From an uncultured virus (IMG/VR IMGVR_UViG_3300038520_001826) (taxonomy: Duplodnaviria; Heunggongvirae; Uroviricota; Caudoviricetes): a stretch of DNA of 20,000 nt. The translations under genes and the position numbers were made by a program. Shown piece after piece: positions 4,479 through 9,568 of this stretch. The stretch lies in the IMG/VR virus record IMGVR_UViG_3300038520_001826; one strand, given 5' to 3'. The notes beneath the pieces were generated by a model, which did no database searches, was not told the DNA's origin, and worked only from the letters and a program-made list of their open reading frames with translations. Position 1 is the first letter of the stretch, and every line of letters begins with the position of its first letter.

Positions 4479-5384
4479 TCACACCCATGAATCATCTTGT
4501 GCGGCATCACAAATACCAAAATAAGAACAATGAGCGCAAGTCTTGTAAAAGAACTTAGCAGGGAATTGTTCTCTTTCATAGTGATGAATTAACTTAGCAA
4601 TATTATTCATTACAGAAGTCATAGACCTCTTCTTTCTTTCTTCTGCATAAATGTAGTTCGATGCTGGATAATACCAACCCCAATGTGTTACTTTATCATT
4701 AGGGTCAAGACCATTCTTAATCATAACTTCATCTGTTGCATTCTCAATAAGTAATTCATAAAATGCCATTTCTTTTCTCATTGAGGTTCTCTTGTAATCT
4801 TTCCAAGCACCTGTCTTATATTCAAAAGGAACAAGACCACCGTTTTCTTTAAAAATACGGTCAATGATTCCTTGAATATGGATTACATAATCTCTTTGCA
4901 AAGGAAACTTAGGATTGATGTTTGCAGGGATTGTAATTTCTGCATCAAACTTTCCTTCATTACAAACAGGTAAATATTCATGGACTTTACCTTCTGCCTT
5001 TGCTTCAATAAATCGTTGTGCTTCAAGAGAAGCAACAGTCAATGAAATATCATAGTATTCATCAACAGGCATTAATCCTGTGCAATATTCTAGGATTTCA
5101 CTATTGTTCATTTTTTCCGCCTTCTTAACATCAAAGTCATCAAAGAACTTCTCTCTATGATTGTGAAGAACCGTTCCTTTAAGCATCGCTTCGGTTTGGT
5201 CTTGAGGCAACCGTTGAACATAAGAAAAGTCGTATTTCTTTGGACACCAATCAAAAGTTCCCAAAGAAGACTTAGTTATTTTCAAGATAGGCATAGAGGG
5301 GTCATCATAATTTTCGTGATTCCATTGATAAGTGTATTCTCTCATCGAAGAAATCACCGCATTATATTTTTCGTCGTCGTTCAT
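4479..5384 (-). CDS. Cas4-like / RecB-family PD-(D/E)XK exonuclease with 4-Cys Fe-S staple
   Basis: SSLGTFDWCPKKY, GTVLH, GIIDRI, EYKTG and C-terminal CAHCSYFGIC. Confidence 0.88.
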   Translation of the reverse strand: MNDDEKYNAVISSMREYTYQWNHENYDDPSMPILKITKSSLGTFDWCPKKYDFSYVQRLPQDQTEAMLKGTVLHNHREKFFDDFDVKKAEKMNNSEILEYCTGLMPVDEYYDISLTVASLEAQRFIEAKAEGKVHEYLPVCNEGKFDAEITIPANINPKFPLQRDYVIHIQGIIDRIFKENGGLVPFEYKTGAWKDYKRTSMRKEMAFYELLIENATDEVMIKNGLDPNDKVTHWGWYYPASNYIYAEERKKRSMTSVMNNIAKLIHHYEREQFPAKFFYKTCAHCSYFGICDAAQDDSWV

Positions 5385-5385
5385 T

Positions 5386-5550
5386 TTAATCCTTCCTGTC
5401 TTTTATTTCGCATTCAAGAAAATCAATAGTCAAAATAAGGTGGTCAATAAATGAATATTCTCCTAATTGTCCTTCCTCATCTTCAACTAACATTCTTCCA
5501 TAGTGTTCCATCAGTTTTTTCTTTTTCTTTTCTATCTCTTCTCTATTCAT
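5386..5550 (-). CDS. Small hypothetical protein (54 aa, not in ORF track)
   Basis: Hand-translated MNREEIEKKKKKLMEHYGRMLVEDEEGQLGEYSFIDHLILTIDFLECEIKDRKD. It exactly fills the gap between polB-C and the Cas4-like gene. Confidence 0.6.
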   Translation of the reverse strand: MNREEIEKKKKKLMEHYGRMLVEDEEGQLGEYSFIDHLILTIDFLECEIKDRKD

Positions 5551-5551
5551 T

Positions 5552-6439
5552 TTACCACCATTCGTCTAATTTCATTTGTATTTTTCCTGTTCTTATTGAA
5601 GATACATCCCAATTCATCGCTCGATAAATTGGTTCAGCCTTTTTGATTATTTGTTCTGCATAATGTTTGTAGTCAGGCGTGTACCTTTCACATTCATCAT
5701 ATGTTGTTGCAGATACATATTCTACTTCTCTTTGTTCCTTCGTCAAAGGATGTGTATATGTACTATATACGTCTTTAACCTTAAGATATAAATAAGAATC
5801 ATCAAAGGTCATATCTAATTTTTCCCAAGCGTAAAGAATACCTGCAATACCTGAACCAATTGCAGGTCTTTTGTAAGTAGATGTTACAAACCTTTCTGTT
5901 TCTGTTCCGCATTTATCACACCATTTAATTTTAATACATTCTTTTAAGTGGTGTTTCTTCTTACATTCAGGACACTTAAGAATAATTCTATCTTCTCTTA
6001 GACGGCTACGTTTTACAATGTCAGAAGTATTTACTTTACCTTCCATAACTTCATTGTATTTATCAGAAAGATACTTGTTTATTTCTCCCATTGTCTTTTG
6101 TTCGACCCACATCTTCAATACTGTTGTTTGAACATCCTTAGCGAGTTTTGTTTCACTAACACGCTTTGCAGTAAAACCTGTCATTGTAAATTTAGGCTCA
6201 TCGAGCCAAACTCCATCTTCCCAAGATACTAAACCTGCGTTTCGATTCTTTGTTGTTCCAACACCTAATGCAGAATAATACTTTTCAAATTCAAGAACAA
6301 CTGGATGCTGTTCAAGATTCAATACATTAGGAAAGTGTTCACGAACTGAATCTTCAATCTCCTTGATTGCTGATTCAGCCTTTTCAATAGATTCAATCTG
6401 AACATAGATTGAATCTGTATGTCCATAAACTACTTTCAT
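5552..6439 (-). CDS. polB: Family B DNA polymerase, C-terminal subunit (motif C palm + thumb)
   Basis: MKVVYGHTDSIYV, LEFEK, KNRNAG, TGFTAKR and YAEQIIKKAEPI. C-terminal PIP box QMKLDEWW. GGTGAT SD at 6443-6448. Confidence 0.9.
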   Translation of the reverse strand: MKVVYGHTDSIYVQIESIEKAESAIKEIEDSVREHFPNVLNLEQHPVVLEFEKYYSALGVGTTKNRNAGLVSWEDGVWLDEPKFTMTGFTAKRVSETKLAKDVQTTVLKMWVEQKTMGEINKYLSDKYNEVMEGKVNTSDIVKRSRLREDRIILKCPECKKKHHLKECIKIKWCDKCGTETERFVTSTYKRPAIGSGIAGILYAWEKLDMTFDDSYLYLKVKDVYSTYTHPLTKEQREVEYVSATTYDECERYTPDYKHYAEQIIKKAEPIYRAMNWDVSSIRTGKIQMKLDEWW

Positions 6440-6442
6440 AGT

Positions 6443-6448
6443 ATCACC
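6443..6448 (-). promoter_or_regulatory. Shine-Dalgarno GGTGAT for the polB C-terminal subunit
   Basis: GGTGATACTATGAA is identical to the start context at 18481-18494 and complementary to the 16S 3' end (AUCACC). Confidence 0.7.
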
Positions 6449-6638
6449 AAGCGTTTTCAAAATAGATTTTATTATCAGTGTATTGCATCAATTCCTGCTT
6501 AATAGTTTTAATATCCTTAACTAAGTCTGCGAATGTTACATTCTCTTCGTAAAGTTGGCCTATTTCATTTTCAAGCCTCTTTACTGTTTGCTTCAAATTT
6601 GCTATTTCTGCTTTTAATTCTTTAATTTCTTTACTCAT
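6444..6638 (-). CDS. Small coiled-coil protein
   Basis: Heptad pattern IKELKAEIANLKQTVKRLENEIGQL. GGTGAT SD. Confidence 0.7.
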   Translation of the reverse strand: MSKEIKELKAEIANLKQTVKRLENEIGQLYEENVTFADLVKDIKTIKQELMQYTDNKIYFENAW

Positions 6639-6766
6639 AATATCACCGTTACGATTGTTATAATGGTTATAATGTTCACGATATTTACCATCATCAATAT
6701 CTTATTGCTTTTTGCTATCATAGCAAGAAGTTCTTTAAGAAGTTCATTAGTTTTGTCCATCATCAT
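6635..6766 (-). CDS. Small putative membrane protein (43 aa, not in ORF track)
   Basis: MMMDKTNELLKELLAMIAKSNKILMMVNIVNIITIITIVTVIL, with a C-terminal hydrophobic helix. ATGA overlap with the next gene. Confidence 0.6.
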   Translation of the reverse strand: MMMDKTNELLKELLAMIAKSNKILMMVNIVNIITIITIVTVIL

Positions 6767-6908
6767 AAACTTCACTTACCGTTACTATAATAGCGTTCCT
6801 TTTGAGATTGTTCATCATTTGAAATAATTCCTTTACTTCTTGTAAAGTAATATCCCATGTTTCTTCTGTATCATAAGATACTTCAACTGTTACAATTTTC
6901 TTCTTCAT
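6747..6908 (-). CDS. Small hypothetical protein (53 aa, not in ORF track)
   Basis: MKKKIVTVEVSYDTEETWDITLQEVKELFQMMNNLKRNAIIVTVSEVYDDGQN, with a GGAGGT SD upstream. Confidence 0.65.
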   Translation of the reverse strand: MKKKIVTVEVSYDTEETWDITLQEVKELFQMMNNLKRNAIIVTVSEVYDDGQN

Positions 6909-7143
6909 AAATATACCTCCATTTATCTTTTATTACCCAATGTTTAGTCCTTGATTTATTTCCAACAGGGTCAGCATATGGCTTTAGAAGTCGTGCTATT
7001 CTCGCCACTTTATAATACTTACCATGTTCTCTTTTGTAAAAATCAAGTATTTCATCTATTTGAAACTCATCAGGGTTTTCTACTTGTTGTAGAGATTGAA
7101 TTAACTTTTTCTTAATTCTAAGATTTCCTGCACTTCTACCCAT
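6883..7143 (-). CDS. Small basic protein, possible winged helix-turn-helix
   Basis: Pattern of helix / FQIDEILDFY / KVARIARLL / wing ending HWVIK. ATG immediately follows the polB-N stop. Confidence 0.55.
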   Translation of the reverse strand: MGRSAGNLRIKKKLIQSLQQVENPDEFQIDEILDFYKREHGKYYKVARIARLLKPYADPVGNKSRTKHWVIKDKWRYIYEEENCNS

Positions 7144-8799
7144 TTATTCCATCTCCTTTGCTTTAAATGCGGCTAAACGAATTGCTTCTCTTGCACTTGC
7201 AGTAATACTAGCGGCTAAATCTACATCAGCCCAACCAAATCCTTGAAAGGCTACAATGCCATAAAATGATGCCATTAATCTTTTTACTGCCATTTGGTTG
7301 TTATACCACTTGACATATTCATTTTTATCATCATTCTCTCTTGCTTCTTTCATAAGACCCTTGTATTTGTTTCTTAAATCTTTCAATTCAAGAACTGCGC
7401 TAGGTAAAAGACCTAGATTATCTGTCTTATAATACAACATTTGTTCTCTATCAGTAATACTGAAATCTCTAGGTGTTAAAATATTTACTCCAAATTCTGT
7501 TGGTTCTTCTGATTTAGTTTCCCATGAAATATTTCTTGCAATCATCATTGAAGGATATAGTCCTGCAAAATCAAAAGCAGCAACATTAAGATGCAATCCA
7601 TTTGTTTCTTCACTTAACGGGTCATAAATCATAGCACCATCGTATTCTTGACGTTTCTCTACCTTTTCACCTGTTGGTGCAATCCATGTAGCATGACGCA
7701 TAAAATAGATTGAACCCATATGACTTGCGTAAAAGCAAGCACTAAATGGCGCAATTAGAAGTCTTTGTAATGCTACGATTGCTTCACTACAATAATTCAA
7801 TTCATCAATTTCAACCATCAATTCAACATCTATCTGAGCATACTTAAGATATGTTTCAGTATCATTTAACCAACCTTCTCGATAGAATACATTCGGGTCT
7901 GGGAACTTTTCACTAACAAGTTTCTTTCTTCCCAATACTGATTCAGAAATGTAATCTAAAGACATTGACGGTAATGTTCCCCTTTGAGAGTCATTCCATT
8001 GTCTTTCAAAAGCAAGGTCTAAATTGAGGGTTATGCGACCCCCAATGGGCTGTTCGATAGGGCCGAACCCATTGTTACCATATTTGAAAATAAAGCCGTT
8101 CGTAGTCTTCTTAACGCCCTTAATCTCCAAAACTGGAGACATGATTGTGGGGTTTAATTCCAAAGCACACGCTCGCTCAAGGAGTTTTGGCAAATCGAAT
8201 TTTAGACCAAACCATGCAATTAACATATCAGGGTCTTTATCGACCATTGTGTGCATAAAGTTTTCAATCATATCCTTTTCACTATCAAACGTAAATGTAG
8301 ATGTAGTGTCATAAACTAAATCACGTTGCAATTCTTTTGGAAACCAAACCCATTGGAAGTATTTCTCATCATAATTATCATAAACCACAATAGTAGTAAT
8401 TTTATCATGGTGTTCACCGCCCTGTTGCCATTCCATATCCCAATACCATTTACGCATCTTATATTCAGGTAAAGAACCTAAAGTATCAACTGCATATCTA
8501 AAAGCATATGGAACATCTGCTTCAAAGGTTTTTACAAAAGAACGTCGAGCAATATGAATATCATCAGACTTATCCACATAAACTCTAGTCAATTTTTCAC
8601 CTTGAAGATTGTGCCAATTGCCCTCTTCATAAGTAAATTCTCTCTTAATGAATTTAGAAGGCGCATAATACTTAGGTTGATTATCAGAAGATAGGATATA
8701 GAAATAAGGAGTAAATTCAACAATTTTTTGTCTTTTCTCTCTACCCTCTCTCCATGATGTATAGATGTGCTTTCCTGTATCTGTTTTACTTATTATCAT
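7144..8799 (-). CDS. polB: Family B DNA polymerase, N-terminal subunit (N-term, exonuclease, motif A, fingers/motif B)
   Basis: FEADVP, ExoI DME, ExoII WFGLKFD, ExoIII YAQID, motif A DFAGLYPS, motif B QMAVKRLMASFYG, then AASITASAR. Confidence 0.92.
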   Translation of the reverse strand: MIISKTDTGKHIYTSWREGREKRQKIVEFTPYFYILSSDNQPKYYAPSKFIKREFTYEEGNWHNLQGEKLTRVYVDKSDDIHIARRSFVKTFEADVPYAFRYAVDTLGSLPEYKMRKWYWDMEWQQGGEHHDKITTIVVYDNYDEKYFQWVWFPKELQRDLVYDTTSTFTFDSEKDMIENFMHTMVDKDPDMLIAWFGLKFDLPKLLERACALELNPTIMSPVLEIKGVKKTTNGFIFKYGNNGFGPIEQPIGGRITLNLDLAFERQWNDSQRGTLPSMSLDYISESVLGRKKLVSEKFPDPNVFYREGWLNDTETYLKYAQIDVELMVEIDELNYCSEAIVALQRLLIAPFSACFYASHMGSIYFMRHATWIAPTGEKVEKRQEYDGAMIYDPLSEETNGLHLNVAAFDFAGLYPSMMIARNISWETKSEEPTEFGVNILTPRDFSITDREQMLYYKTDNLGLLPSAVLELKDLRNKYKGLMKEARENDDKNEYVKWYNNQMAVKRLMASFYGIVAFQGFGWADVDLAASITASAREAIRLAAFKAKEME

Positions 8800-8800
8800 T

Positions 8801-9568
8801 TTAATTACCTGCCGAAAACGGTGCTTTAATTATCATCCTGTCTTCTGCAACTAACAATAGCGGAAACTCATCCTTCACATAAAAATTAATATTCGTATTT
8901 TTCTTGAAAAACTTATGTAATGGGCCACTATATTCTAATGTTGCAGATTCACCAAAACAATTTGTTGGTGTAATTCTTTCTTCGTATTGATTCTGAATAG
9001 TAGCACCGCTTGAAAATGTAACGGTAGTACCATTGTAGTCTAGTTTAAATGCGCCATGATTTGCCAATTCACAAGATGAAATACAATCAGAATAAACATC
9101 TTGACTTAAGATAAAAGCACCTTCATACTTTGATTTACCAAAATCTGGTAAAGTTGTAATTTCTTCTTCATAGGTAATGTTAGATAACATACCTTGAAGT
9201 CGAGTAATTGCAGTCATATTAGGATGTTGAATTACTTTTGCTACACTAGCCTTCTTTGTTCCAGAACTAACTTGAATTGTATCATCTACAACAAAAGCAG
9301 TTAGTTCTCCGTATTTCTTAAGATACGGGACAAGAGTCTTAACATTACCAATAAACTCGCCATCTTCTGCACCTATCACTTCTAAATTGATATTCATAGC
9401 AAAGGTAGTATCTCCATTCCAAATGGATAGAGTATTACCTCTTAACTGCATTAAGAAATGTAGTCCCATCGAGTTATTTGTAAAACCCGATGAAGTTAGG
9501 TATTTACCTTTACCTTGAATACTTTCTAATGCTTCTGTAATTTGTTTTGTATTTACTGCAAATTTCAA
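8801..9568 (-). CDS. pcn: PCNA-like DNA sliding clamp
   Basis: 255 aa, with the clamp-like alternating helix/strand pattern and C-terminal FPLLL...MIIKAP. Directly upstream of polB, in a cluster with RFC. Confidence 0.7.
   Translation of the reverse strand: MKFAVNTKQITEALESIQGKGKYLTSSGFTNNSMGLHFLMQLRGNTLSIWNGDTTFAMNINLEVIGAEDGEFIGNVKTLVPYLKKYGELTAFVVDDTIQVSSGTKKASVAKVIQHPNMTAITRLQGMLSNITYEEEITTLPDFGKSKYEGAFILSQDVYSDCISSCELANHGAFKLDYNGTTVTFSSGATIQNQYEERITPTNCFGESATLEYSGPLHKFFKKNTNINFYVKDEFPLLLVAEDRMIIKAPFSAGN

Follow-up and report, generated by a model that had tools for sequence, protein, structure and literature searches.

A family B DNA polymerase gene split ahead of motif C in a putative magrovirus, with a variable, gene-filled gap between its halves

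How does a virus copy its genome when the gene for its family B DNA polymerase (PolB) is broken in two within the catalytic domain? This question is raised by a 20,000-nucleotide (nt) stretch of DNA from an uncultured tailed virus (IMG/VR record IMGVR_UViG_3300038520_001826; hereafter the window), in which polB is present as two separate genes, polB-N and polB-C. An earlier interpretation made from the letters alone (hereafter the sequence-only reading) had proposed a two-subunit polymerase that assembles in trans. The follow-up analysis points in the same direction. With a probability of roughly 0.85, the PolB of this virus consists of two polypeptides that share a composite active site, the cut is old and fixed, and it likely originated from the insertion of an endonuclease gene or another mobile cassette.

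Every long open reading frame (ORF) in the window is on the minus strand. The parts of the polymerase are located as follows (aa, amino acids):
7144..8799, minus strand: polB-N, 551 aa, with the N-terminal domain, the 3'-5' exonuclease, motif A (D410) and motif B, ending in ...KAKEME and the stop
7549..7572, minus strand: motif A, DFAGLYPS, polB-N residues 410-417, with the first catalytic Asp; aligned to the motif A region of Pfu polymerase
6443..6448, minus strand: Shine-Dalgarno-like GGTGAT, 3 nt before the ATG of polB-C
6410..6427, minus strand: motif C, YGHTDS, polB-C residues 5-10; aligned to VVYGDTDS of yeast Pol delta
5552..6439, minus strand: polB-C, 295 aa, with motif C, the remaining palm and the thumb; N-terminus MKVVYGHTDS
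5909..5974, minus strand: zinc-ribbon-like insertion with four cysteines (Cys4) in the thumb (C156, C159, C174, C177)
5555..5578, minus strand: C-terminal QMKLDEWW, a putative PIP-box-like clamp-binding tail; Q288 and W294 are invariant in 26 relatives

The description of polB as two genes cut before motif C, with four ORFs between them, proved correct in every detail when ORF coordinates, Pfam matches and alignments were compared. The C-terminal residues of polB-N are ...AREAIRLAAFKAKEME (...ITASAREAIRLAAFKAKEME), with the TAA stop at 7144-7146, and the N-terminal sequence of polB-C, read from the ATG at 6439, is MKVVYGHTDSIYVQIESIEK; this ATG sits within a longer ORF (5552-6460) that has a TTG start. 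The gap between the halves (6440-7143, 704 nt) holds four same-strand ORFs of 86, 53, 46 and 64 aa, which abut or overlap, the third and fourth sharing ATGA. The TGA stop of the fourth lies inside the GGTGAT motif, 4 nt ahead of the polB-C ATG. As had been claimed, polB-C thus has a ribosome-binding site of its own, and the catalytic aspartates of motif A (D410) and motif C (HTD, D9) are on different polypeptides.

The two genes together cover what one polymerase gene would. In polB-N, the Pfam profile DNA_pol_B (PF00136) is matched at profile positions 26-193 of 453 (E = 2.2e-19; 70 bits, cut-off 23) and DNA_pol_B_exo1 (PF03104) is matched with 35.8 bits, and polB-C matches the next part of PF00136, positions 222-365 (E = 7.7e-9; 35.3 bits). 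Likewise, the PHROG family 262, "DNA polymerase," is matched by the N half up to position 560 and by the C half from position 574. When aligned through solved structures, polB-N corresponds to residues 105-525 of Pfu polymerase, with Exo I, motif A and motif B in register. The DxE of Exo I is represented by D121 and E123 (WDMEW), the DxxSLYPS of motif A by DFAGLYPS (D410-S417), and the KxxxNSxYG of motif B by K506...S511-F-Y-G514. Among 26 diverse relatives, D121, E123, D410, L414, Y415, P416, K506, Y513 and G514 are invariant in polB-N, and M1, V3-S10, K92 and R93 are invariant in polB-C.

In motif C, a His replaces the first Asp of YxDTDS, whereas the second Asp (D9) is kept. The HTD variant was found in 59 of 59 split loci and also in the intact relatives P0002, P0003, P0012 and P0014. 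Since it is common to intact relatives, it is uninformative about the split, and by these alignments it appears to be a trait of the clade unrelated to the break. Including two further proteins, (Y/A)GHTDS was seen in P0002, P0003, P0012, P0014, P0017 and P0019. In the zinc-ribbon-like insertion, all 26 relatives have C156 and C159 and nearly all have C174 and C177, and the alignment shows the insertion to be missing from the intact P0002 and P0003. One distant split locus (L084) has only the first CxxC. The C-terminal tail resembles the PIP-box consensus, Qxx[LIM]xx-aromatic-aromatic, and the intact relatives end in RLDEWF or TLEDWW. The presumed clamp contact would therefore be located on the small subunit, polB-C.

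The exact position of the cut was determined by comparison with intact relatives, which were sought among 1.84 billion representative proteins. Two of these are P0002 (780 aa, 49% identity to the N half) and P0003 (815 aa, 45%). Across the break, intact relatives read continuously (...KEMGYEICYGHTDS, ...KVKEMGYEICYGHTDS and ...SITASARHATRSAALKVKEMGYEICYGHTDSIYIK...), as compared with ...KAKEME and MKVVYGHTDS in the window. In the alignment with P0002 and P0003, the "GY" of the intact proteins is divided between the halves, E551 of polB-N being aligned with its Gly and M1 of polB-C with its Tyr. The cut thus separates neighbouring residues of the ancestral protein, four residues ahead of YGHTDS, and 0 residues are lost or gained. 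The sequence-only reading had expected almost no loss at the break, and relative to these two proteins nothing is missing or added. A search for fused forms of at least 966 aa at E = 1e-10 found none, a range that excludes normal PolB lengths and is hence uninformative. Intact polymerases of the P0002 type were not found in IMG/VR, where the search gave further split relatives only, and in the P0003 lineage polB is uninterrupted in all 22 loci that hold the whole gene. The KEM at the end of polB-N consists of ancestral residues (KEMGY in intact relatives), and the final codons AAG GAG ATG GAA TAA (7144-7160, minus strand) also provide an AAGGAG ribosome-binding site for the next gene.

The break is shared by a large group of viruses. 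Relatives of polB-N are encoded in 530 IMG/VR stretches, and the 80 best of these, with 58-95% identity, were examined; the N half is cut by the locus end in three, which leaves 77 assessable. A stop codon within 0-3 codons of the residue aligned to E551 was observed in 77 of 77, and in each of the 59 loci that hold the C half, it starts with M-[K/E/D/R]-VVYGHTDSIY. The remaining 18 loci end 28-1799 nt past the polB-N stop, before any C half. The two halves are always adjacent and in the same order (59/59), and the distance from the stop to the ATG varies from 424 to 2819 nt. Furthermore, the same cut is present in three more distant loci (L082-L084), which have 44-46% identity to P0002 and in which 2213, 867 and 300 nt, respectively, separate the aligned halves. 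The comparison of related viral contigs thus gave the same break and the same restart throughout, which excludes a chance event, and the split is fixed over a large clade. In a quick tree of N-half regions (40 rows), the split needs one change only.

The window is a metagenome assembly, and the same samples contain co-occurring relatives with other gap contents, as might be expected if the break were an assembly artefact or a population chimera and the true genome had an uninterrupted polB. Such an explanation is next to impossible to reconcile with the same break in 77 of 77 loci from many metagenomes. Moreover, both junctions are tiled by contigs of one public run (X1), and a 9101-nt contig from a run of another study (X6) spans 5546-9000 colinearly, with 258 differing letters and 2 gaps. 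The stretch or a part of it is present in 20 DNA runs from 9 studies, all of them marine or estuarine where labelled; no RNA run was among the 21 listed, and all of this public-run evidence consists of contigs. The misassembly that the sequence-only reading had named as a danger is excluded by the loci and the independent contig. If the break is real, it could still be healed after transcription or translation, by a group I, group II or bulge-helix-bulge intron, by translational bypass or by a split intein, to yield a full-length polymerase. Archaeal PolB inteins are common near catalytic motifs. In addition, the split in Methanobacteriales has been ascribed to faulty intein excision, and the PolB halves of Nanoarchaeum are joined by a split intein (PMC4104785). 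The evidence from the locus itself makes healing very improbable. Because the halves abut exactly at ancestral residues, there is no room for intein halves; none were found, and neither new end carries extra residues relative to intact relatives. In the relatives, polB-C has K, E, D or R as its second residue and never the Cys, Ser or Thr of a splice junction, in agreement with the earlier statement that no intein residues flank the break. When 5300-9000 was compared with Rfam at E up to 1, there was no match, including no intron. In ten diverse loci, pairing between the two junctions was no stronger than that of shuffled sequences (z from -1.55 to +1.62), as judged by a crude duplex test with mononucleotide shuffles rather than a dedicated bulge-helix-bulge search. 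The gap, 424-2819 nt long, contains genes under purifying selection. At the restart, the ATG of polB-C is conserved, and a Shine-Dalgarno-like motif is present at -18 to -3 in 50 of 60 loci, compared with 6% of random 16-mers; the ten other loci carry partial motifs. In six loci a stop codon immediately precedes the polB-C ATG.

A different possibility is that both ORFs are made as they stand and no longer form a polymerase, being relics or having separate jobs (polB-N, for example, could act as a stand-alone exonuclease), while host polymerases replicate the virus. The His in place of the first Asp of motif C would fit such a loss of function, but the same HTD is common to the intact relatives. 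The ratio of nonsynonymous to synonymous divergence (dN/dS, pairwise Nei-Gojobori) is 0.15 for each half over lineages of 58-95% identity, which indicates purifying selection on both, and motif A, motif B, the second Asp of motif C and the K92-R93 pair are invariant. The conserved adjacency and order of the halves also speak against separate jobs. Furthermore, the virus encodes other parts of a replication apparatus, with Pfam or PHROG matches in the window to an RFC-type clamp loader, an ATP-dependent ligase, primase-like proteins, ERCC4 and a Cas4-like nuclease, and polB-C has the PIP-like tail. Consistently, in four of four complete split-type genomes (CheckV 100%; 94.2-94.9 kb) the only PF00136 matches are the two halves, whereas a complete intact-type genome has a single PolB frame of 821 aa. 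Loss of polymerase function is on these grounds quite unlikely.

The two-polypeptide reading was further examined by predicting the structure of the halves together. Co-folding of polB-N and polB-C gave an interface score (ipSAE) of 0.79 (0.76, 0.80 and 0.79 in three runs), compared with 0.01 for the best of three controls. Contact agreement among runs was at least 98%, and the predicted local distance difference test (pLDDT) score of the partner was at least 84. The closest contacts are those of N402-409, the strand that runs into motif A, with C11-14 of the motif C hairpin and with C54-59, and the new ends (N550-551 and C1-18) lie together. In the model this is the ordinary PolB palm sheet, rebuilt over two chains. 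The separate starts, the purifying selection, the lack of another PolB, the lack of splicing signals and the predicted complex together support a polymerase that would assemble in trans, although assembly and activity of the halves are predictions.

Under the two-polypeptide reading, each half would be translated from its own start within a tightly packed block of same-strand genes, whose packing suggests one operon with coupled translation. The halves would rebuild the palm non-covalently, with the motif A strand of polB-N pairing with the motif C hairpin of polB-C, so that Asp410 of the N half and Asp9 of the C half form one composite active site. The small subunit would bring the thumb, the Cys4 zinc ribbon and the PIP-like tail; with this tail on polB-C, the sliding clamp would grip the C half directly and the N half by way of it. 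The known natural and engineered PolB splits are mostly in the fingers, and the locus provides a naturally occurring template for a family B polymerase in two pieces with its break in the palm.

What lies between the halves was compared by gathering and clustering the gap ORFs of 60 loci (59 relatives and the window). In the window they are:
6883..7143, minus strand: F4, a variable 86-aa ORF, winged-helix-like, with its ATG directly after the polB-N stop
6747..6908, minus strand: F1, 53 aa (about 55 aa across loci), which opens the gap core and is present in 58 of 60 loci
6635..6775, minus strand: F0, a microprotein (43-46 aa) in which an amphipathic helix is followed by a hydrophobic C-terminal tail; present in 59 of 60 loci
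6444..6638, minus strand: F2, a 64-aa coiled-coil ORF that closes the gap core and is present in 57 of 60 loci

Among the 60 loci, 35 gap architectures were found, and the F4-F1-F0-F2 of the window is the commonest (13/60). F1, F0 and F2 are contiguous in this order in 53 loci, whereas F4 is present in 19. The "four-ORF insert" of the sequence-only reading therefore holds as a count of ORFs, but it is not one insert: a conserved core, F1-F0-F2, is accompanied by the variable F4. The latter has a dN/dS of 0.23, and its structural model (pLDDT 70.7; topology H-b-H-H-b-b-H) gave no match to the PDB at E up to 0.001 by Foldseek, although the top matches, all weak (best E = 0.022), are winged-helix domains. 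Contigs of co-occurring relatives diverge from the window at 6439/6440 and 7139-7150, which are gene borders, and such joints indicate that several gap variants live in one sample. In relatives' contigs from runs X3 and X13, parts of the gap are missing or exchanged for other DNA; one example passes from 6766 to 7139 with 545 other letters in between. Larger gap ORFs were also observed, namely one of 563 aa (L070:5980-7671) and Cys-rich ones of 220-221 aa (L007:6656-7318 and the F17 ORF of L037), none of which has a match in Pfam, and many of the other gap ORFs (families F5, F6, F7 and F10) encode tiny CxxC zinc-ribbon proteins.

Endonuclease ORFs were found in seven of the 60 gaps, with HNH domains in three loci (L009, L035 and L040) and MUG113/T5orf172 domains of the GIY-YIG superfamily in four (L005, L017, L018 and L061), and they are always the first or second ORF after polB-N. 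Because endonuclease genes occur at this edge in relatives, and because there are phage precedents, our best guess is that the cut began with the ancient insertion of a free-standing homing endonuclease or mobile cassette beside the conserved DNA of motif C. The DNA between the halves has become a landing pad with a steady turnover of genes. The gap illustrates clearly how an essential gene, once broken, can become a hotspot of gene exchange.

Among the viruses that infect archaea of the ocean surface, magroviruses rank with the most abundant. To our knowledge none has been cultured, and their replicase has so far been accessible by sequence only. Gene content and relatives indicate that the window belongs to a tailed virus that infects marine group II archaea and is a magrovirus of group B, the lineage with split PolB. 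The gene content noted above fits the magrovirus group, as do the nearest cultured or GenBank viruses, which are haloarchaeal tailed viruses with 24-26% identity. Several traits of group B1 were found, namely the split DNA polymerase (DNAP), the archaeal-type replication module, the marine origin of the runs and complete relatives of 94.2-94.9 kb, with near 100 kb expected. The group is treated as the family Aoguangviridae in a 2025 paper (PMC11706807).

The sequence-only reading cautioned that a split polB might already be reported for magroviruses, and it has been in print since 2017. A split DNAP was described in seven group B (B1) magroviruses, at a position that is similar, not identical, to both the Methanothermobacter thermautotrophicum split and the sites where other Euryarchaeota carry inteins (Philosof et al. 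2017, Curr Biol; PMC5434244). In the legend of Figure S3 of that paper, the paired genes are 1 to 6 numbers apart (e.g., gene_16_15 and gene56_62), a spacing that fits the variable gap. As far as its description goes, those viruses are of the same kind as ours, with the same replication module and a catalytic domain split into two nearby genes with genes between them; we see no essential difference, and the window would be another member. The passages and legends of that paper considered here give no exact cut, no F1-F0-F2 trio, no endonuclease genes in the gap and no fold of the pair. In the passages of the magrovirus and split-polymerase literature considered here, no description of the gap trio or of endonuclease genes in the gap was found either. 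The split itself is thus already known, and what appears to be new is the anatomy of the gap, above all F0. To the published split can be added a clean cut four residues before motif C, the placement of the catalytic carboxylate motifs on different chains and a predicted clamp-binding tail on the small chain.

Other polymerases and phage enzymes have been broken in comparable ways, as described in the sources at hand. In Methanothermobacter thermautotrophicus, an archaeal-type PolB is cut in the palm and made as two polypeptides without an intein (Kelman et al. 1999, via PMC3061061, PMC4104785 and PMC5434244). That enzyme resembles ours in having a family B palm divided between two separately made chains, but its split is placed on the C-terminal side of Pfu 467/468, about 83 residues away, and some 85 kb separate its two genes (PMC3061061), whereas the window is cut at about Pfu 533/534, just before motif C, with halves 704 nt apart. 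Five T4-like phages have natural PolB splits at the fingertip of the fingers (PMC3061061). The gp43A and gp43B cistrons of T4-related phages are 2 bp to 3 kb apart (Petrov et al. 2006, 2010, via PMC3061061 and PMC2988022), and those of Aeromonas phage 25 have a seg endonuclease gene between them and encode proteins that co-purify and are active (PMC2988022). These are likewise viral PolBs of two cistrons with diverse intercistronic DNA, including a seg-type homing endonuclease gene; unlike the present case, the split is at the fingertip and not in the palm, the viruses infect bacteria, and no microprotein trio is described in those accounts. In Aeh1, nrdA-a, mobE and nrdA-b are "genes in pieces" (cited in PMC2988022): a free-standing homing endonuclease gene interrupts an essential replication-related gene close to a catalytic region, and the pieces assemble unspliced. 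The enzyme is a different one, and the endonuclease is present there, whereas here it occurs in seven of 60 loci and not in the window. The window works like a member of the "genes in pieces" class without the defining endonuclease gene. The PolB halves of Nanoarchaeum equitans carry intein parts and are ligated by trans-splicing (PMC4104785). Such split-intein polymerases and other "fractured genes" share with our locus a PolB in two genes or, for fractured genes, a homing endonuclease gene between the halves, but the polB ends of the window are without intein residues.

Several points weigh against the account given above or parts of it. Single-chain PolB structures are abundant, so the high co-folding score may reflect the memory of the model for them, and thus likeness, not binding; of 157 solved complexes, 116 reach the mark used for ipSAE, as do 2 of 215 mismatched pairs, counts that hold only roughly here, as custom alignments were used. 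Motif C reads HTD rather than DTD, and activity is predicted only for the whole clade. In the quick tree the separating branch has an SH-aLRT (approximate likelihood ratio test) value of 60 and the intact P0002 is unresolved at the base of the split lineages, so a single origin of the split is allowed, not established. None of the four gap ORFs of the window has an endonuclease-family match in Pfam or PHROG, 53 of the 60 loci have no endonuclease gene, and the origin by endonuclease insertion is inferred. Lastly, the group B assignment relies on the published description, gene content and relatives rather than on direct genome comparison, and blastn against the GenBank phage collection gave no DNA match.

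The most constant content of the gap is the trio F1-F0-F2, and within it F0. The F0 of the window is 46 aa long from a GTG and probably 43 aa from the ATG at 6766 (MMMDKTNELL...); its consensus is MMMDKTNELLEELLAMIAKSNKILMMVNIVNIATIITIVTVIL, with 20 invariant columns. Its synonymous divergence equals that of the polymerase (proportion of synonymous differences, pS, 0.63), but its nonsynonymous divergence is lower (pN 0.12, compared with 0.20-0.24 for the polymerase halves; dN/dS 0.12), which indicates a real protein that is better conserved than the enzyme around it. IMG/VR holds 236 relatives of F0, of which the best 80 were examined. In all 69 assessable loci F0 lies between polB-N and polB-C, the other 11 being cut by a contig end, and it is accompanied by F1 in 80 of 80 loci and by F2 in 74. 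The F0 profile has one match in each of the four complete split-type genomes and none in five intact-type records (two complete). Consistently, the profiles of F0, F1 and F2 have no match within 8 kb on either side of intact polB in the loci L085-L111. F1 has a dN/dS of 0.21, and its model (pLDDT 85.8) has one helix at 15-32. F2 has a dN/dS of 0.58 and only sub-threshold coiled-coil matches in Pfam. F4, F1 and F0 have no match in Pfam or PHROG; in the ESM Atlas, F0 and F1 hit unnamed clusters only (scores 0.83-0.89), which are leads at most.

Two explanations for the trio were considered. The genes could be passengers (morons) without a link to the polymerase, kept since the site tolerates insertions, and we find this rather probable. 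F2 evolves fast, the membrane-type tail of F0 would be odd for a polymerase subunit, and two kinds of distant split locus depart from the pattern. The smallest gap (L084:9510-9803, 300 nt) has one unrelated 68-aa ORF with hydrophobic, membrane-type helices and no trio, and in a distant split lineage (L082:12812-12985 and L081:2879-3052) an F0-like ORF of 58 aa (E = 1e-9 to 8e-11) lies outside the gap, about 1.5 kb downstream of polB-C. A passenger would not obviously be placed between the halves in every assessable locus, present once per complete split genome and absent from the intact-type records, more conserved than the polymerase itself, and held in a fixed order in 53 of 60 loci amid such turnover. 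These features would suit dedicated partners of the split polymerase: the tail-anchored 43-aa F0, and also F1, could serve as an assembly factor or membrane tether that arrived with the cutting insertion or soon after and then became indispensable. We regard that role as unlikely, and F0 may be merely a long-resident passenger. If it were true, the polymerase would have at least three parts, with the extra subunits encoded inside the broken gene.

Two further observations concern the surroundings of the polymerase. A 571-aa relative of polB-N (P0001) has a CxxC...CxxC insertion (...KVCDSCNHKNDNDKTLKICVRCGE...) before motif A, where the window has none. Directly upstream of polB-N, an ORF of 255 aa (8801-9568, minus strand) lies between a Sak4-like ATPase and the polymerase. 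It is without a match in Pfam or PHROG, and its size and place would suit a sliding clamp, which magroviruses reportedly encode.

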